Below are positions 7,206-57,555 of a stretch of DNA of 64,000 nucleotides, piece after piece (the first letter of the stretch is position 1; each line of letters begins with the position of its first letter). The notes beneath the pieces were generated by a model. The model searched no databases and was not told the DNA's origin. It saw nothing but the letters and a program-made list of their open reading frames with translations. Made by a program: the position numbers and the translations under genes. The stretch comes from a bacterium (GTDB taxonomy: Bacteria > UBA10199 > 2-02-FULL-44-16 > JAAZCA01), in contig JAJZQH010000014.1 of the NCBI GenBank assembly GCA_021810905.1, positions 12,369 to 76,368 on the forward strand, written 5' to 3'.

Positions 7206-7434
7206 GCACAACACATGAGGATCATGGTTTCGGGTCCTGTCGCCGGCCACCCCCATTTGTGACCTTCCGATAGGATTGTTGTACAATGCTGAAATGCCGC
7301 AGCGTGGGTTCCGCGCTGCGGCCGGCATCGCCGCATCTATCACAACTTTATGCGGGCATCGAAGGCGGCTGCTGGCGTCAAATGGGGGTCCCCCGTCCAG
7401 CGCCACCCAAAACCATGATCCTCATGTGTTGTGA
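7206..7434. repeat. 229-nt long-hairpin element with 24-25 nt terminal inverted repeats (MITE-like or structured RNA)
   Basis: GCACAACACATGAGGATCATGGTTT at 7206-7230 is the reverse complement of 7410-7434 (24 of 25 match). Interior is further self-complementary (CCACCCCCATTTG with CAAATGGGGG). Starts on the first base after the stop of the upstream gene. Confidence 0.6.
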
Positions 7435-7505
7435 CAGTTGCACTGATGAATTCCCTAGGTTGCCGAAACGTTATGAACGGAGTCAACCTTACGTTTGGCA
7501 CTTGA

Positions 7506-7774
7506 GCGGTGCAGCTATTCGGCCTGGAGTTTATTGGCGGGCATCGCGTAGAGAGCCGTCTTTGTCGGCGAGCGGTTGCCGGTCGTGCCAGAGTAGAAGC
7601 CCGGGTTGCACGACGCCGAGGCTGTTCGAGCCTGCGAAAGCGGTTTTTTTTAGAGGTAAAGACTTCTTTTGCTTTCGCAGGCGAGTTCCGAGGCGAGGCA
7701 ACCCGAGTCCGTTACAAAGACGTGCGAACGGAGCGCCGCCCGACGATAAACTCCAGGCCGAATAGCTGCACCGC
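7506..7774. repeat. 269-nt element closed by 24-nt perfect inverted repeats, with internal 12-bp hairpin
   Basis: GCGGTGCAGCTATTCGGCCTGGAG at 7506-7529 is the reverse complement of 7751-7774. Internal hairpin GCCTGCGAAAGC with a 29-nt U-rich loop and GCTTTCGCAGGC at 7630-7682. Lies in the convergent gap about 50 nt from the gltB stop. Confidence 0.6.
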
Positions 7775-7822
7775 CTTGGTGCCAATCTGCGTGTTGACTT
7801 CGTTCATAACGTCTCGCCGCGC

Positions 7823-10800
7823 TTACCGCGGAGTCACTAGGATGAAACGGGTGGAGGTTTCCTGCCAGGTGTCCAGCAGGCTGCGGGCTTGCGGGCTCTT
7901 TGTATCATTATAATAGTCAGTCAGGATCTCCCTGAGCGCATCTGTCTTGCCCGGTTCGTCCGCGAGAGATATTGCCGTCACGTCGGAATGCAGGCGCTCG
8001 CGCGCGCTGCCGTCCGGATCAAAGAGATATATCTCTCCGCCGGTCATGCCTGAGCCGACGCAGGGTCCGCATCTGCCGAGCACCACGCCAGTGCCGCCTG
8101 TCATGTATTCGAACGCGTATTTGCCGACCCCCTCGCAGATCAGCAGCGCGCCAGAGTTGCGCACTCCAAAGCGCTGGCCAGCCCTGCCGGCGATATAGAG
8201 ACGACCGCCTGTTGCACCGTATGCAGCGGAATTGCCGACGAGGTGTGGAGCGCAATCGCCTCCAACCCCGGCAGGCGGCGCAATCACGACGCTCGCATTG
8301 CCGCTCATCGCCTCTGCGACGCCGTCGTTTGCAAAGCCGTCGAGCCTTAGGGTCATGCCGTCCGTCGCGGCAAAGCCGAATCCATGTCCGGAATAGCCCT
8401 TGGCGTGGATCTCAATTCGTTCCGCGGTTTCTGCCACCCTCTCCCTTGATGGGAGAGGGAAGGGTGAGGGTGCATCCGATCTCAGCCTGGCTATTTCTCC
8501 TGCAAGCGTTGCGCCCACGGCGTGGTCGCCGTTGCAAAGCGATATGCGTATCGGCGCATTCCCGGCGCGTCCGTCGAACACGGCGCGGGCGGAAGAGAGG
8601 ATCTCGGCGTTCCTTGCGGATACGGCACGAAATTCCGTTTGAACACATCGTGCAGTGCGCGCCTCGCCATGGAAGTACATGAGCATATCCGTGAAATCGA
8701 GACGATCCCAGCGCGCCATACCTGATACGCGAGGTTTCAAGAGATCCACGCGGCCCACGAGTTCGCGCGGGTGTGTGAGGCCCAACGTAGCGAGTATGTT
8801 CCTTAAGTCGTCGCCCATGCATTCGAGATAGCGGATCACGCCGCTTTTTGCTTCATTATATCGATCCATCGCTGCTGCTTCATCGGGATGCACTCCCTTG
8901 AGATAGCCGCGCATGAAGCGTTTGTTCTGTTTTTCCTCGTCCTGCGTCGCGATGCCCACCGGGCAGTTGCCCTTGTTGCACCCACGGCAGAATATGCAGC
9001 ACTCGGCCACGAGGAGCGGCGTGCCTATGGAGACTTCATCGGCGCCGAGCGCGATGATCTTTGCCGCATCCATGCCGCACTTGATGCCGCCGTCCGCGCG
9101 CACGCGCACGCGCGAGCGGATTCCGTTTACGACAAGATATTGATGCAGCTCGGAGACGCCGCGTTCGATCGGCAGTCCCGCGTGCGAGATGCTGCCGGAG
9201 CTCGCGGCGCCGGTGCCGCCCTCAAAGCCGCTCACCACGATCACGTCGGCGCCTGCCTTTGCAACTCCAACGCCGATCGTCCCGAGATTTGTGACCGATG
9301 GAACCTTGACCGACACGATTGCTTCAGGATGCAGCTCGCGGAGATTGGTGATCAGCTGTGCAAGATCCTCGATGCTGTAGATGTCATGATGCGGGGGAGG
9401 GCTGATGAGATCCACGCCAGGCTTCGTCTTTCTGATGCGCGCGATTTCCTCGGTGACTTTTCTGCCGGGCAGGTGGCCGCCCTCGCCGGGCTTGGCGCCC
9501 TGGCCGATCTTTATCTCGATCTCGTCCGCGTGTACGAGATACGTGGCGTCCACGCCGAACCTGCCGGACGCGATCTGGCGGATCCTGCTGCGATCGGAGG
9601 CCCACTCGCCGTCCTGGTTTCGACGCTCGTCTTCTCCGCCCTCGCCGGAGCATGAGGCTGCATCGAAGTGGTTGAAGGCCGACGCTATGGCGCGATGTGC
9701 CGTCGAGTTGAGCGCACCGTGCGACATGGCTGCCCCGCGTATCGTACTCCTTACGATCTCTCTTGTGTCCGCGACTTTTTCGAGATGCGGCGGCATGTCG
9801 CTTTTTTTGAATTCGAGCATGTCGCGCAGATATACGGGAGGTGTATCTTCAAGCAGTTTCACGAACCGGTCGTAGTCGCCGTTTGAATTTCCGTTGCGCG
9901 CAACGAGCTGGAGCGCGTCTGTCACTTCCTTGCGATAGACCGTCATGTTTTTGTTTCGCGCTATGGCATTCGAACCGACGGCCGAGCGTGCGACTGTGTC
10001 CTCGTAGATGTCGTCCATGGTGATGCCGCCGAGCCGCGAGACCGTATCCGGGATGTAGTATTCGACGACATCCGAAGAGATGCCGATCGCCTCGAAGAGC
10101 GCCGAGCCGCGATAACCGGTGAGAGTCGTGATGCCCATCTTCGACATGATGCGCCTCAGCGTGTGCACAACCGACTTCACAACGTTGGCGTACGCTTCGT
10201 CAGGTGGGATATCGGAAAAAGTCGTGGCCAGGTGCAGCATGGCGTACGGGTTCACGGCCGTGGCGCCGTAGGAGAGCAGGATCGCACAATCGTGGCCTTC
10301 GTGCGTGCTGCCCGTCTCGGCAATGATGCTGGCAAAGCGCCGGAGGCCCCTAGCGGCGAGCGCCTGATGGATGGAGCTCACAACGAGCAGCATGGGAACC
10401 GGCGGCCTTTCGCCGCGCGTGGCGGCGTAATCCGTAACAACGAGTATCGACGCCTCCTTGGAGCGTATCACGCGCACGGCTTCGTCGGTGAGGTCGTGTA
10501 TCCTTCTCACGATTTCGCGCGGGCTGCCTTTGTCGACGAAAGTCGCGTCGATCTCGTGCGCCTTTAGTTCAGAGATATCTGATGAGAGGATCGCCTGCAT
10601 CTGATCGTTCGTCAGTATCGGGTGATCCAACTTATACTGCGGCCACGACATGTAATCGCTGCGCCTGCTGATGCGCGGCGAGCGGCCCAGGTACACCGTA
10701 GTATCTATGGCGCCGCCCTCGCGCAGCGGATCGATGGGCGGATTTGTGACGACAGCAACGATCTGGTGAAGGAAGCTGTAGAGCCTGGAATGGTTTTCGC

Positions 10801-12259
10801 TGAAGATCGCGAGCGGGCTGTCGTTGCCCATGCCGAGAATCGGCTCCTTGCCGCCCTTGATCATCTCGTGCAGTTGCTCGATGCGCTCCTTTGTCCAGCC
10901 GAACGCGTTGAGCGCGCGGATATCGAGCGGCTCGCTCTGCCTGCCTCTGCCGATGGGGAGCAGATCCACCGTGGCCAGGTTTTCGAAGTTGAGCCCGGTG
11001 CGATCTACGATCCATGCGGTCGCAGACTCAGGAGATATGAACTCGCCGTTCTCCACGTCGGCGATAAGCATTGCACCCGGCTCGAGCTGGCCATCGCACT
11101 CGATCTCCGAGGCTTCGAGCGGAACCGCACCGGCCTCGCTCGATACGATCACGCGATCGGATTTAGTCCTCACGTATCGTAGCGGCCGCAGTCCCATGCG
11201 GTCCATCGCCGCCGCGAGTATTTTTCCATCCGTGCCGAGGATCGCTATCGGTCCCTCCCACGCGCCCATGGTTCCGAGCGCGCGGCGATTCGCCTCGAAA
11301 AATCTGCGTTCGCGCTCGCCGAGCAGGTCTTCGTCCCAGGCGGGGGAGATCATCCTGCGCAGCGCCTCGTGGATGCCGGTGACGCCGTTGGCCACCATCA
11401 TCTCGGCCACGCGGTCGAGCTGCGCGGAATCGCTTCCGTGGTTCATGAGCGTGTTGCCGATGGCGAGCGCGCTGTCCGCGTCCTTGATGGCGCGGCAGTT
11501 TGCGGTGATCGTGTTGATCTCGCCGTTGTGCGCGATGTGCCGAAACGGCTGCACCAGATTCCAGTTGGAGAACGTGTTGGTAGAGAAGCGCCTGTGCGCC
11601 ACTATAACCCTCGTCTTGAACTCCGGATCGCGGAAGTCCTCATAGAATGACGCGAGTTGATCGGACTTAGCGAGCGCCTTGTAAACGGTTGTATGCGGAG
11701 CGAGCGAGACCACGTTGACTATGCCGGCGAGCTCGCGCTCTATGAGGACCTTCGCGTGGTGGAGCGCTTCAAAGAGCTGCGCCTCCCGCCTGTGGCCCTT
11801 GGCTGCGAGGAGCTGGAATATGATGGGTGCGTCTTCCCGCGCACGAGCGCCCAGTGCAGACGGATCAACCGGAGTCTTGCGCCAACCGAGCGGGGCGAGA
11901 CCCTCCCTGCGTATGATGAGGTCCATTTCGCGCGTGAGCTGCGGGATATTGCGCTCGCCGTGGAGGAAAAAGACCGTGCCCACGATGAGAGGTTCCTTTG
12001 CGCTCTGGAGGGAGCGTCCGTGCGCGATGAATCGCTCGAAGAAGGACCTCTCCGGCCGGAGGATCAGCCCCGCGCCGTCGCCCGTGTCTCCGAGCGAGCC
12101 GCCCCGGTGCTCCATGCGGATGAGCCCGTCCAGGGCCTGCCTGAGCAGTTCGTGGGAGGCCGGCGCAGCCAGATCGGCGATAGCGAGGATCGCGCATCCC
12201 CCGCGGCCGGGGTCGCCCTTGATTTCCTCGATGCGTTTTTTGTATTTTTTCGTATTCAT
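7823..12259 (-). CDS. gltB: glutamate synthase large subunit (single chain, about 1478 aa)
   Basis: N-terminal Ntn amidotransferase region (GDPGRGGCAILAIAD), central FMN/Fe-S domain, C-terminal GXGXG domain. Start set at MNTKKYKK (ATG 12257-12259) with an AAGGA ribosome-binding site. Confidence 0.9.
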   Translation of the reverse strand: MNTKKYKKRIEEIKGDPGRGGCAILAIADLAAPASHELLRQALDGLIRMEHRGGSLGDTGDGAGLILRPERSFFERFIAHGRSLQSAKEPLIVGTVFFLHGERNIPQLTREMDLIIRREGLAPLGWRKTPVDPSALGARAREDAPIIFQLLAAKGHRREAQLFEALHHAKVLIERELAGIVNVVSLAPHTTVYKALAKSDQLASFYEDFRDPEFKTRVIVAHRRFSTNTFSNWNLVQPFRHIAHNGEINTITANCRAIKDADSALAIGNTLMNHGSDSAQLDRVAEMMVANGVTGIHEALRRMISPAWDEDLLGERERRFFEANRRALGTMGAWEGPIAILGTDGKILAAAMDRMGLRPLRYVRTKSDRVIVSSEAGAVPLEASEIECDGQLEPGAMLIADVENGEFISPESATAWIVDRTGLNFENLATVDLLPIGRGRQSEPLDIRALNAFGWTKERIEQLHEMIKGGKEPILGMGNDSPLAIFSENHSRLYSFLHQIVAVVTNPPIDPLREGGAIDTTVYLGRSPRISRRSDYMSWPQYKLDHPILTNDQMQAILSSDISELKAHEIDATFVDKGSPREIVRRIHDLTDEAVRVIRSKEASILVVTDYAATRGERPPVPMLLVVSSIHQALAARGLRRFASIIAETGSTHEGHDCAILLSYGATAVNPYAMLHLATTFSDIPPDEAYANVVKSVVHTLRRIMSKMGITTLTGYRGSALFEAIGISSDVVEYYIPDTVSRLGGITMDDIYEDTVARSAVGSNAIARNKNMTVYRKEVTDALQLVARNGNSNGDYDRFVKLLEDTPPVYLRDMLEFKKSDMPPHLEKVADTREIVRSTIRGAAMSHGALNSTAHRAIASAFNHFDAASCSGEGGEDERRNQDGEWASDRSRIRQIASGRFGVDATYLVHADEIEIKIGQGAKPGEGGHLPGRKVTEEIARIRKTKPGVDLISPPPHHDIYSIEDLAQLITNLRELHPEAIVSVKVPSVTNLGTIGVGVAKAGADVIVVSGFEGGTGAASSGSISHAGLPIERGVSELHQYLVVNGIRSRVRVRADGGIKCGMDAAKIIALGADEVSIGTPLLVAECCIFCRGCNKGNCPVGIATQDEEKQNKRFMRGYLKGVHPDEAAAMDRYNEAKSGVIRYLECMGDDLRNILATLGLTHPRELVGRVDLLKPRVSGMARWDRLDFTDMLMYFHGEARTARCVQTEFRAVSARNAEILSSARAVFDGRAGNAPIRISLCNGDHAVGATLAGEIARLRSDAPSPFPLPSRERVAETAERIEIHAKGYSGHGFGFAATDGMTLRLDGFANDGVAEAMSGNASVVIAPPAGVGGDCAPHLVGNSAAYGATGGRLYIAGRAGQRFGVRNSGALLICEGVGKYAFEYMTGGTGVVLGRCGPCVGSGMTGGEIYLFDPDGSARERLHSDVTAISLADEPGKTDALREILTDYYNDTKSPQARSLLDTWQETSTRFILVTPR
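8435..8482 (-). repeat. palindromic repeat copy embedded in-frame in gltB, encoding SDAPSPFPLPSRERVAE
   Basis: Reverse complement reads GATCGGATGCACCCTCACCCTTCCCTCTCCCATCAAGGGAGAGGGTGGCAGAAACC. It is near-identical to the intergenic copy at 43171-43229. Contains the hairpin CCCTCTCCC..GGGAGAGGG. Confidence 0.7.
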
Positions 12260-12573
12260 GGTTCCTTGCGCAGTAGAAGCAGCTTTTCTCAGTGACGGGA
12301 GGATTGATGTCAAGACGAAATGCTTGCGAAGCAATCTTCTTTATGTCATATGCGCCAGACGTTTTGCCCAGTGACAACTTGATTGCGGGCTGTTCAAAAT
12401 GACCAGATGCAAGGCTCCCGATGGAGCCTGACTGAGATTCACTTGAAAGAGGGTTTCAGAAATAGTGCGAGACGAGGCAGGCTGAGGAGGCCGGCCGAGT
12501 CGTACTGTAAGTACGTCGCAGGCCGTGCCGACGAAGACAACGAAGTATCGCGCTATTTATGAAACCCGACATT

Positions 12574-20600: not shown

Positions 20601-20681
20601 AAAACGTCGTTCGTCGTTAGTCGTTCGTGAATCGTAAAGACCTCAGTCACTTGGGCGGTTTTACGATCGACGAACGACGAA
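20601..20681. repeat. TAGT-arm hairpin element, copy A (5-prime leader of yfgM-like gene)
   Basis: AAAACGTCGTTCGTCGTTAGTCGTTCGTGAATCGTAAAGACCTCAGTCACTTGGGCGGTTTTACGATCGACGAACGACGA. Arms and core are self-complementary. Homologous copies at 36618-36728 and 39975-40050. Confidence 0.65.
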
Positions 20682-24704: not shown

Positions 24705-24794
24705 CCCCTCCCCTTTGTAAGGGGAGGATGGGAGAGGTAGACCGTGGATACAACCACGATCTACCTCCCCTCGCCCCTCCTTACAAAGGAGGGG
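24705..24794. repeat. REP-like palindromic element: two inverted units of CCCCTCC-TTTGTAA-GGAGGGG..GGGAGGTAGAYC
   Basis: Unit at 24705-24743, palindromic spacer GTGGATACAACCAC, inverted unit at 24758-24794. The same unit recurs at 57518-57555. Confidence 0.7.
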
Positions 24795-26320: not shown

Positions 26321-26340
26321 ACTTAGTGATAGTATGGTGG

Positions 26341-26470
26341 TACGTTAGTACGTTAGTACGTTAGTACTTTCGTACGTTCGTTAAGCGTGTGAGCTGTCAG
26401 GTTTAGAACACCATGTTCGATCACGATCCTTTAACTAACGTACCAACGTACTAACGTACCAACGTACGAA
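26341..26470. repeat. inverted-repeat element with TACGTTAG tandem arms (divergent member of the TAGT-arm family)
   Basis: Left arm is TACGTTAG repeated about 3.5 times. Right arm is the reverse-complement pattern CTAACGTACCAACGTACTAACGTACCAACGTACG. About 70-nt core. Lies directly upstream of guaA. Confidence 0.55.
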
Positions 26471-26479
26471 GTTGATACC

Positions 26480-28021
<1,542 letters not shown>

Positions 28022-36618: not shown

Positions 36619-36728
36619 AAACCGTCGTTCGTCGTTAGTCGTTCGTCGATCGTGACGGCCTCAAGAACATGGACGTTTTTACGATCAACGCACCACGAAT
36701 TACGAACGACTAACGACTAACGACGAAA
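36618..36728. repeat. TAGT-arm hairpin element, copy B (fills the gap from the dnaE stop to the ribosome-binding site of the next gene)
   Basis: AAAACCGTCGTTCGTCGTTAGTCGTTCGTCGATCGTGACGGCCTCAAGAAC..GTTTTTACGATCAACG..CGAACGACTAACGACTAACGACGAAAC. Arms are reverse complements. Aligns with copy A. Confidence 0.65.
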
Positions 36729-43023: not shown

Positions 43024-43137
43024 TTCAAGGGGAATGATTGACCTTGCGGTATTGGTGCTGTAAAAAAGCGATCCGTGTTGAACAGCCGCCGCAATAACGC
43101 AGAGAGTGGGCTATGCGAAAGACGATAATATTGAAAG

Positions 43138-43262
43138 CTCCCCGCGGCAAGCCGCGGGGAATCATCGGCAACATTTCCGATCACCCTCACCCTTCCCTCT
43201 CCCCTCAAGGGAGAGGGTGGCGGAAACCCCGCAGCAAGCTGCGGGGTTTCATCGGATTGGCA
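43138..43262. repeat. cluster of three REP-like hairpins
   Basis: Hairpin a: CCCCGCGG-CAAG-CCGCGGGG at 43140-43159. Hairpin b: 43171-43229, the near-identical copy of the gltB insert, with CCCTCTCCC-CTCAA-GGGAGAGGG. Hairpin c: AAACCCCGCAGC-AA-GCTGCGGGGTTT at 43224-43249. Hairpins a and c are followed by the related tails AATCATCGGCAA and TCATCGGATTGGCAA. Confidence 0.7.
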
Positions 43263-43271
43263 ATCATCTTT

Positions 43272-44939
43272 ATGCTGTCCTCCATCGGCGGGACGGCGCG
43301 GGCTGCGCTCAATCCGTCTTCGCCGTTCCAGGTCTTCTGGGACGACGCGCCGATGACGATTTCCGCTGGAACCCCATTCCATCTCAACGTCACGATCAGG
43401 GCGCCCGAGGGGTATTATCTGTATGCGGATGAGACTGACCTCGATTTTGTGAGCCTGGAAGGCCTGTTTGTAAAAGATATTCGATATCCGCGCCCCATTC
43501 AGTACACCGACCCTTATTTAGGCAAGACAGTTGGTATTTTCAAAGGCGATACGGTCATATCGATAGAAGGCATGGCGCCCGCGGGTCTCGAACCTGGCAG
43601 AAAGGAACTCACCGCTTTATTGCATTTCAGAGGGTGTTCTCCTTCGCTCTGTTACAGGCCGGAAGAGGATGAAATCGCCTTCATACTGGTCGTGGAGCCA
43701 GCGCCGCAGGTGGAGCGAGTCGAACCAAAGAATCCGGACGTGCATGCGCAGGAGGAGTCAACGCCAATGCCCAGGAGCCTGCCGGAGCAGCTGGGGCTCA
43801 AGCACCTGCTGCAGGTTCAGGATTTCTCGACTCTGCTGGGGCGCGGAACTCTCTTTGCGCTGCTCGTCGTCTTCCTTGCGGGAGTGCTGACTTCGCTCAC
43901 GCCGTGCGTCTGGCCCGTGATACCCGTGGTCCTCCTCTATGTAGGTGTGCACCCGCACAAGCGCTTTCTGGAAAACTTCCTCCTCTCGGCCGTGATGGTC
44001 CTGGGGATAGTGGTCACCTATGCCGCACTGGGCATCGGCGTTGCGGCCTTTGGAAAAAACCTGGGTTTCCTCTATCAGCAGCGGTGGTTTTTGGCGCTGG
44101 TCGTGCTCTTCTTCATTGCGATGAGCCTCTCGATGTTCGGGGCCTTTGACATCCGCATGCCGCGCCGCCTTCATGCGCGGCTCCATGCGCTCGGGGGCGA
44201 GGGATACTGGGGCGCCTTCCTGGCTGGCATGGGGCTGGGGCTCGTCGCCTCGCCTTGTTCGGGCCCGGTGCTCGCGGCGCTTTTGGGTTACGTGGCCCTG
44301 CAGGGTAGCTACCTCGTAGGTTTCGGCCTGCTCATAGTCTACGGCCTCGGGATGGGCCTGCTCATGATGCTGCTCGGCGCATGTTACGGAGAGCTTGCCG
44401 GCAAACTCAAAGGGGGCGCGTGGATGCTCTGGATAAGGCGCGCCCTTGGAATCGTATTGCTGTTCCCGGCGGCGTACTACATGGGCGTGCTCTTCAACTG
44501 GAACCCGCAGCACAAGGCCCCTGCGAACGCCGCGCGAATAGAGTGGGTGACCAGTGAAACCGACGCCCTGCGCGCTGCAGCCCAGACGGGTAAATCCGTC
44601 ATGATCGATTTTACGGCCGCGTGGTGTCCGCCGTGCGGAGCGCTCGAACGCAATTTCTTTTCGAGAAACGACGTCATCGGGTTGGGCTTCGAGCTCATCC
44701 CGCTCAGGGTGGACGCAACGTCCGAGACAAAGGACGTGCGGCAGCTCATCGCCAGATACCGCGTCGCAGGATGGCCGACCGTTCTCTTCGTGGGGCCGGA
44801 CGGAACCGTGTACGAGGACCTGAGGGTGAGCGATTACGACCCTCCGGCAATCGAGCGCAACATGCGCGAAGCGATAAAGAGGGCCCATGCTTCTGACATG
44901 CCCGGAATACGCTCCGAACGAGCGACGGAGAAGCGATGA
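43272..44939 (+). CDS. dsbD: thiol:disulfide interchange protein DsbD-like (CcdA-type membrane core plus C-terminal thioredoxin)
   Basis: Transmembrane Cys pair LTPCVWPVIPV and SPCSGPVLAALL. C-terminal thioredoxin FTAAWCPPCGALE. Start uncertain (ATG 43272 or upstream TTG); the long upstream in-frame extension covers the repeat cluster. Confidence 0.75.
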   Translation: MLSSIGGTARAALNPSSPFQVFWDDAPMTISAGTPFHLNVTIRAPEGYYLYADETDLDFVSLEGLFVKDIRYPRPIQYTDPYLGKTVGIFKGDTVISIEGMAPAGLEPGRKELTALLHFRGCSPSLCYRPEEDEIAFILVVEPAPQVERVEPKNPDVHAQEESTPMPRSLPEQLGLKHLLQVQDFSTLLGRGTLFALLVVFLAGVLTSLTPCVWPVIPVVLLYVGVHPHKRFLENFLLSAVMVLGIVVTYAALGIGVAAFGKNLGFLYQQRWFLALVVLFFIAMSLSMFGAFDIRMPRRLHARLHALGGEGYWGAFLAGMGLGLVASPCSGPVLAALLGYVALQGSYLVGFGLLIVYGLGMGLLMMLLGACYGELAGKLKGGAWMLWIRRALGIVLLFPAAYYMGVLFNWNPQHKAPANAARIEWVTSETDALRAAAQTGKSVMIDFTAAWCPPCGALERNFFSRNDVIGLGFELIPLRVDATSETKDVRQLIARYRVAGWPTVLFVGPDGTVYEDLRVSDYDPPAIERNMREAIKRAHASDMPGIRSERATEKR

Positions 44940-57517: not shown

Positions 57518-57555
57518 CCCCTCCTTTGTAAGGAGGGGTAGGGGAGGTAGATCCT
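57518..57555. repeat. REP-like unit CCCCTCC-TTTGTAA-GGAGGGG-TAGGGGAGGTAGATCC (same family as 24705-24794)
   Basis: Begins 7 nt after the arsP stop. Hairpin stem of 7 bp with a TTTGTAA loop. Near-identical to the inverted unit at 24758-24794. Confidence 0.7.

Follow-up and report, generated by a model that had tools for sequence, protein, structure and literature searches.

A triplex-motif repeat of the BoxC/PIT/TM type carried in frame by the gltB gene of an uncultured bacterium

How does a DNA repeat whose relatives are described from the spaces between genes come to be translated within a conserved enzyme? The question is raised by a 64,000-nucleotide (nt) stretch of contig JAJZQH010000014.1 (assembly GCA_021810905.1, positions 12,369 to 76,368), hereafter the window, which belongs to an uncultured bacterial lineage (UBA10199). 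Here, gltB, encoding the large subunit of glutamate synthase, holds a ~50-nt palindromic repeat with a near-identical twin elsewhere in the window. We consider it likely that a normally intergenic repeat of the BoxC/PIT/TM_ECO type was copied in frame into a loop of gltB, and that it persists there as a neutral or slightly costly passenger. Stretches of DNA other than the window are cited below by L numbers and individual proteins by P numbers.

The gltB copy and the enlarged loop

In gltB, the open reading frame (ORF) spans 7823-12334 on the minus strand, and the 1478-residue product is counted from the methionine at 12259 (Table 1). All four domains of the protein (GATase_2, Glu_syn_central, Glu_synthase and GXGXG) are matched in Pfam, and solved GltB chains (PDB 7MFM, 6S6S, 1EA0 and 1LLW) align with it from end to end. 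Judged by its sequence, gltB is an intact gene that carries the repeat in frame, as a preliminary description made from the DNA letters had claimed. The minus strand at 8423-8482 reads GATCGGATGCACCCTCACCCTTCCCTCTCCCATCAAGGGAGAGGGTGGCAGAAACCGCG and is translated as ...RLR-SDAPSPFPLPSRERVAET-AERIEI, with five of the six reading frames open through the copy. As RNA, the 68-nt context of the copy folds at -27 kcal/mol (z = -2.5), dominated by the 9-bp stem CCCTCTCCC/GGGAGAGGG. Two assemblies share this DNA, one as a 35.8-kb contig at ENA and one as a 173-kb contig at NCBI; they are identical over 24.4 kb and both encode the exact GltB protein.

The translated repeat falls in the loop that leads from the helix ...GATLAGEIA to IEIxxxGxxG, the first strand of the beta-helix; this loop was delimited in an alignment of 23 homologues, 22 of them informative. 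This loop is 24 residues long in the window protein and 8-12 residues long in 20 of the 22 informative homologues, while it reaches 27 residues in P0068 and 54 in P0004 (contig L104). The excess of the window protein amounts to 14 residues (42 nt) over its nearest homologues, and HMMER alignments with GltB of B. subtilis (7MFM) and A. brasilense (1EA0/2VDC) place a 12-residue gap exactly at the loop. The preliminary description had put E. coli GltB at about 12 residues shorter at this point and expected an indel of 10-17 residues, which agrees with the 12-14 residues found here against homologues of at most 61% identity. It had also named orthologues with the same extra residues as the outcome contrary to its proposal; these residues are missing from 20 of the 22 homologues, and no solved GltB structure has them.

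Structural prediction of the 269 C-terminal residues with AlphaFold2 gave a mean predicted local distance difference test (pLDDT) score of 92.9, and the sole run below 50 comprises domain residues 59-68, inside the insert. In the model, the insert follows a helix (41-52) and precedes a strand (72-81), a loop position of the kind envisaged at the outset, and the match with solved GltB C-terminal domains gives TM-scores of 0.81-0.85. The inserted segment is thus predicted to be disordered, and the remainder of the domain to adopt the fold of solved GltB. In the protein search, the window GltB forms a singleton cluster, its closest homologue being 61% identical over the domain; that the extra residues were gained, rather than lost several times, is what we infer from their distribution among homologues and not from an empty allele.

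Directly downstream of the gltB stop codon lie two large inverted repeats, at 7207-7433 (29-nt arms, 97% complementary, 169 nt apart) and at 7464-7816 (84-nt arms, 81% complementary, 185 nt apart). They overlap a 159-residue ORF for which Pfam gave no match.

Table 1 Features of the window and of contig L104.
Feature	Position	Strand	Basis or remark
gltB, glutamate synthase large subunit, 1478 residues, intact	7823..12259	(-)	Pfam domains and end-to-end alignment
50-nt block common to gltB and twin, minimal inserted repeat	8423..8472	(-)	Repeat finder; 94% identity with 43182-43231
Codons for GltB loop residues SDAPSPFPLPSRERVAET (repeat and edges)	8426..8479	(-)	Translation, homologue alignment
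Class II (purine-motif) intrastrand triplex motif of the gltB copy	8437..8470	(+)	Own motif finder; G-rich strand, which is the gltB template strand
Second-family motif, inverted-pair member, CCTCCCCTT-TGT-AAGGGGAGG-ATG-GGAGAGGTA	24707-24739	(+)	Intergenic
Second-family motif, inverted-pair member, CCCCTCCTT-TGT-AAGGAGGGG-CGA-GGGGAGGTA	24762-24794	(-)	Intergenic
DsbD-like ORF, 608 residues as annotated in both assemblies	43113..44939	(+)	Pfam
Composite mosaic element, ~120 nt	43137..43259	(+)	Recurs in the mscL-secA spacer
Twin triplex motif, perfect, CCCTCTCCC-TTGAG-GGGAGAGGG-AA-GGGTGAGGG	43184..43217	(-)	Own motif finder
Second-family motif CCCCTCCTT-TGT-AAGGAGGGG-TA-GGGGAGGTA	57518..57549	(+)	Intergenic, 7 nt past a stop codon
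In-frame composite inserts of the L104 GltB, each with a full triplex motif	1680-1713 and 4343-4376 of L104		GCA_964505575.1

Architecture, further copies and known relatives of the repeat

Within the window, the 40-nt pattern CACCCTCACCCTTCCCTCTCCCNTCAAGGGAGAGGGTGGC has two exact matches, at 8433-8472 on the minus strand and at 43182-43221 on the plus strand, and it was absent from 100 dinucleotide-preserving shuffles of the window. The preliminary description had reported near-identity over 55 nt between 8428-8482 and 43171-43229. The repeat itself stands, yet its coordinates shift: through 8473-8482 the two sites have only GAT in common, and their similarity extends 5 nt further on the opposite side, to 8423. 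A third copy is found on the same contig just outside the window, in the mscL-secA spacer ~1 kb before its start (L002 23205-23325), so the repeat is not single-copy, in keeping with what had been anticipated. Altogether, ~66 kb of the host genome contain three copies of this first family as well as three motifs of a second family, an over-representation as expected of a TM_ECO-type motif that the shuffles do not reproduce. Neither copy in the window matches any Rfam family at the gathering threshold, the sole match there being a tRNA.

The core had been described as a strong hairpin. The 9-bp hairpin is present, but it is not the whole of the element, since three blocks can be recognized. On the G-rich strand, the gltB copy reads CCCTCTCCC-TTGAT-GGGAGAGGG-AA-GGGTGAGGG, that is, a Y block (8437-8445), a 5-nt loop, an R block (8451-8459), a loop of two nucleotides and an R' block (8462-8470). 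Folding the third block onto the purine arm gives nine permitted triads (G*G-C, A*A-T or T*A-T), and all nine base pairs and all nine triads of the gltB copy are perfect. Using our own finder, which demands 9-nt blocks with at most one mismatch per interaction, five triplex motifs were detected in the window, as opposed to zero in ten shuffles. Two of the five are the gltB copy and its twin. The remaining three make up the second family, CCCCTCCTT-TGT-AAGGAGGGG-N2-3-GGGGAGGTA, which has another sequence and the same Y-R-R' order; two of them are perfect and one has a single triad mismatch. Two unrelated sequences that follow one three-block logic suggest that the architecture, and not merely the hairpin, is the conserved feature. 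A stable triplex on the isolated G-rich strand is putative, the hairpin being the part that can be predicted. A pyrimidine-motif triplex on the C-rich (mRNA) strand would be possible in principle, yet Holder et al. state that acidic pH is required, and we do not adopt it as the principal structure. In two of the three second-family motifs, GATC adjoins the third block.

This architecture is that of an element described in E. coli under three names, BoxC (Bachellier, 1990s), PIT element (Hoyne et al. 2000) and TM_ECO (Holder et al. 2015, PMC4666352). The TM_ECO consensus, CCCTCNCCC-N3-6-GGGNGAGGG-N3-GGGNGAGGG, consists of three 9-nt blocks with at most one mismatch. Single-stranded DNA of the TM_ECO class forms a triplex in vitro, while none was detected in vivo; the element showed neither promoter nor terminator activity and no association with transposons, phages or plasmids, all 23 copies of E. 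coli K-12 are intergenic, and the loci bearing them are unusually variable between strains (PMC4666352). Like BoxC/PIT/TM_ECO, the window element has the blocks CCCTCTCCC, GGGAGAGGG and GGGTGAGGG in the same order with a 5-nt first loop (TTGAT or TTGAG), within the 3-6 nt of the consensus, and both copies in the window fit the block pattern with no duplex and no triad mismatch. It is likewise multi-copy and has no associated transposase, and among the triplex motifs of the window inverted pairs are found as in E. coli. Unlike strict TM_ECO, its second loop has two nucleotides (AA) instead of exactly three, a length allowed by the broader ITxF definition, under which loops measure 1-6 nt. By its sequence, the window element is therefore a triplex-motif variant of BoxC/PIT/TM_ECO rather than a strict TM_ECO. 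It further differs in its host, an uncultured lineage and not an enterobacterium, in the translation of one copy within an essential-type enzyme, as opposed to the wholly intergenic K-12 set, and in that the motif also belongs to a mosaic of ~120 nt that includes a second hairpin family.

This mosaic contains the twin and recurs with the third copy, in both cases without gltB flanks. It opens with hairpin B (43140-43159; CCCCGCGGCAAGCCGCGGGG), continues through 22 nt of spacer to the triplex motif and GGCGGAAA, and closes with hairpin B' (43227-43246; CCCCGCAGCAAGCTGCGGGG) and TTTCATCGGATTG, the second hairpin being followed by WWTCATC..ATTG in the twin as well as in the mscL-secA copy. In the gltB copy, the triplex motif is accompanied by the GGCAGAAACC linker, and an intact hairpin B is missing. 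Hairpins of the B family (CCCCGCRGCAAGCYGCGGGG, then WWTCATC), which flank the triplex motif in this fixed arrangement, are also seen in other uncultured genomes (L056 and L105) and inside the GltB inserts of L104.

The twin had been assigned to a cluster of intergenic hairpins. The flanking hairpins are indeed there, whereas its intergenic position is uncertain, as it lies inside the annotated DsbD-like ORF. This ORF reads through the whole composite in a frame different from that of the gltB copy (...SDHPHPSLSPQGRGWRKPRSKLRGF...), over its first ~49 codons. The DsbD_N domain is matched in Pfam from residue 80 (profile position 12), giving a domain start at about residues 69-80, and a signal-peptide-like h-region occupies about residues 46-65, which leaves the first ~45 residues as an extension made of repeat sequence only. 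Given this extension, the clearly non-coding position of the identical composite upstream of secA, and the warning of Di Nocera et al. on misannotated N-termini, the TTG at 43257 is a likelier true start than the ATG at 43113, and the twin is probably non-coding.

Other families of short repeats resemble the element in part. The preliminary description had likened it to Rickettsia palindromic elements (RPEs), which as first described are ~150 bp long and restricted to Rickettsia (Ogata et al. 2000, 2002). The likeness holds for behavior, i.e., a palindromic repeat tolerated in frame in a housekeeping gene at a site compatible with the fold and function of the protein. The mobility that the same description ascribed to the element is putative. 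The likeness does not extend to membership, as the window element is set apart by its size (a shared block of ~50 nt), its host outside Rickettsia, its presumably unrelated sequence, its triplex architecture and its presence in many phyla. Intragenic REPs tagged with GTAG or CGTC are stem-loops of 20-40 bp found in protein genes, including uvrA and uvrB, and are regarded as neutral, and "intragenic" copies at N-termini are often annotation artefacts (Di Nocera et al. 2013, PMC3733652). Like these, the window element is a short stem-loop repeat within a known protein gene; unlike these, it has an additional third block and no known link to RAYT, and an alignment of five copies showed neither tag at the ends. 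The twin and the third copy resemble BIMEs in being mosaics of short palindromic modules in fixed order, although the modules differ. MITEs, finally, measure 70-300 bp, for which the element is too short, and it has no terminal inverted repeats. The kind of event is thus already known from RPEs and intragenic REPs, and the element belongs to the BoxC/PIT/TM family. New relative to the literature searched are the intragenic location, the repeated use of the GltB loop and the in-frame copies across phyla; the search returned no report of in-frame or intragenic triplex motifs or of the peptides that they encode, which is absence of evidence only.

Recurrence in other proteins and genomes

The same loop is enlarged in a second GltB, P0004, encoded on contig L104. 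Here, the loop holds a perfect triplex motif, CCCTCTCCC-CTTGC-GGGAGAGGG-TG-GGGAGAGGG, followed by a further hairpin and then a module resembling hairpin B, and its G-rich strand is the sense strand, opposite to the orientation of the window copy. A second composite insert of ~55 residues lies between the amidotransferase and central domains of the L104 protein, a place without an insert in the window protein. In their C-terminal domains, the window GltB, P0004 and eight insert-free homologues all share ~50-61% identity with one another, which means that P0004 does not represent a sister lineage, and independent gains offer the simpler account. On these sequences, the GltB loop looks like a permissive site. 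Runs of masked bases (N) in the L104 contig split its GltB gene call into fragments.

The ~100 loci of other genomes were surveyed for motifs situated well within long open frames, and these frames were checked in Pfam. At least seven conserved genes from other phyla have Pfam domains on both sides of a full in-frame triplex motif. These encode UvrA (L030), an N6/N4 DNA methylase (L061; three motifs), LeuRS (L005; several motifs), RecG (L088), a NuoF-like subunit (L092), the large subunit of a NiFe-hydrogenase (L064) and the E2 acyltransferase of a 2-oxoacid dehydrogenase, in which the motif occupies a linker (L096). Most of these copies have the G-rich strand as sense and would encode peptides of the ...SPSPLKGEGRGEG... 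type, the gltB copy being reversed. As far as predicted genes can tell, in-frame triplex motifs are recurrent in nature.

A scan of one genome per species located the 25-nt core in at least 101 stretches. The matches listed come from Pseudomonadota, Chloroflexota, Nitrospirota, Nitrospinota, Cyanobacteria, Planctomycetota, Elusimicrobia, Acetothermia and further phyla. Of the 102 occurrences among them, 80 amount to full nine-triad motifs, and a conserved TCACCCTCACCCC leader is present in the flanks of the core. Many copies of other phyla have a second loop of 3 nt. The exact subfamily of the window was found on only three JGI metagenome contigs, one of them identical to L056. In a collection of viral contigs, the core occurs in only three stretches, giving no sign of phage carriage there. 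Several metagenome-assembled genomes (MAGs) of deltaproteobacteria and Syntrophales have the motif at the center of a larger conserved element, ...CTCGTAATAAC...[motif]...TTTTTACGAG... (L025, L051, L067, L086, L087, L090, L006, L017 and L065). This arrangement suggests reuse of the triplex motif as a module in different mosaic repeats.

Origin of the insert and competing explanations

The donor of the gltB copy was probably one of the ~120-nt composite elements of the genome, because the copy carries linker sequence. It would have landed in the codons for the loop joining the last helix before the GXGXG beta-helix domain to the first strand of that domain, adding ~42-54 nt with fuzzy edges. 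As the added length is a multiple of three and brings no in-frame stop, gltB stayed open, and the enzyme would have acquired a ~14-residue segment, rich in Pro and Ser, for which disorder is predicted. The copying may have occurred by recombination, repair or template switching among structure-prone sequences, a hypothesis that the ragged boundaries favor over cut-and-paste at defined ends. Most likely, the insert is a neutral or slightly costly passenger that persists because it is harmless, and not an adaptation of the enzyme.

Several points weigh against this account. No true empty site was seen, the best homologue being 61% identical, which leaves boundaries, target duplication and polarity to deduction. 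The copy number applies to ~66 kb of the genome, the two assemblies may share reads and hence agree without being independent, and the enzyme is known from its sequence, its production and activity being presumed. All 27 block positions are perfectly conserved in the gltB copy, which could reflect a very recent event or selection on structure. In E. coli, we inspected a single locus, the tauD-hemB spacer, across the 5,424 genomes with a match. About one-third of the genomes are without the motif and have the whole spacer replaced by an unrelated 39-nt hairpin spacer (L111-L114), and a third allele has the motif together with 51 extra bases. This variation looks like segment replacement and not clean insertion, and gives no support for simple transposition.

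Could the insert instead serve GltB, for instance by offering a novel surface for interaction or regulation, or by forming an mRNA hairpin that paces translation ahead of beta-helix folding? Three divergent GltBs (the window protein, P0004 and P0068) are enlarged at exactly the same loop, and the triplex blocks of the gltB copy have not decayed. Nevertheless, we regard adaptation as unlikely: the enlarged loops differ in length (24, 54 and 27 residues), sequence and orientation, the window segment is predicted to be disordered, 20 of 22 homologues manage without an insert, and the presence of the motif in many unrelated proteins points to tolerance rather than to a specific function. Transposition of the REP/RAYT or MITE type, with defined ends and a target-site duplication, is very unlikely. 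A 7-nt direct repeat, TGAGATC, flanks the insert on the minus strand (8484-8478 and 8414-8408), possibly by chance, and some weak resemblance to hairpin B persists beyond the shared block (12 of 19 positions). The TGAGATC copies are, however, 70 nt apart, a distance that exceeds the 42-nt excess and is not a multiple of three, and they were rejected as a target-site duplication. Around the gltB copy, neither defined ends, a GTAG/CGTC tag, terminal inverted repeats nor a credible target duplication were found; furthermore, no transposase is known for the BoxC/PIT/TM family, and the core is rare in viral contigs.

A chimeric join inside gltB, induced by the repeat during assembly or binning, deserves mention as the source is metagenome-assembled and short repeats can mislead assemblers, in addition to the possible sharing of reads noted above. 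It is nonetheless extremely unlikely, for the two flanks form contiguous gltB in a single frame, collinear with solved GltB on either side, a chimera would not give a clean in-frame addition, the identity between the two assemblies holds despite their different contig sizes, and comparable in-frame motifs occur in MAGs that are complete chromosomes (e.g., L061). The direction of copying could also be reversed, an old lineage-specific loop of GltB having given rise to non-coding copies of a gene fragment. While the lack of an empty site in a close relative would suit such an origin, it is barely conceivable, given that the motif, at 25-40 nt, occurs in contexts other than gltB in over 100 genome stretches that represent many phyla, that it is a published intergenic repeat of E. 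coli, and that the other two host copies lie within a larger composite without gltB flanks.

In all likelihood, the insert makes no important difference to GltB itself. The function of BoxC/PIT/TM elements and their means of spread have been open questions since the 1990s, and the literature searched describes the copies as intergenic. Translated copies offer natural experiments, in which the reading frame limits the insertions and homologues show the state before insertion, and recurrent insertions in the same loop can separate tolerance from targeting. For annotation, such motifs can add low-complexity segments of 12-50 residues to conserved enzymes, as well as spurious N-terminal extensions. 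It could be speculated that BoxC/TM-type motifs are pan-bacterial DNA, self-propagating or templated by repair, that writes loops into essential proteins through structure-induced template switching or recombination, with no dedicated transposase; this wider view is tentative and on balance doubtful. If it were true, short loops rich in Pro/Ser and Gly/Glu (...SPSPxPSPxKGEG... or ...PSPFPLPSRERV...) would have been written in many phyla, and certain loops, e.g., that of GltB, would be recurrent landing sites.

The window contains further palindromic families. An ~81-nt element with CGTCGTTCGTCGTTAGTCGTTCGT arms is present at two loci, and inverted arrays of an 8-mer resembling GTACGTTA form another repeat family; the regions listed for the two are 20601-20681, 36619-36727 and 26332-26481.

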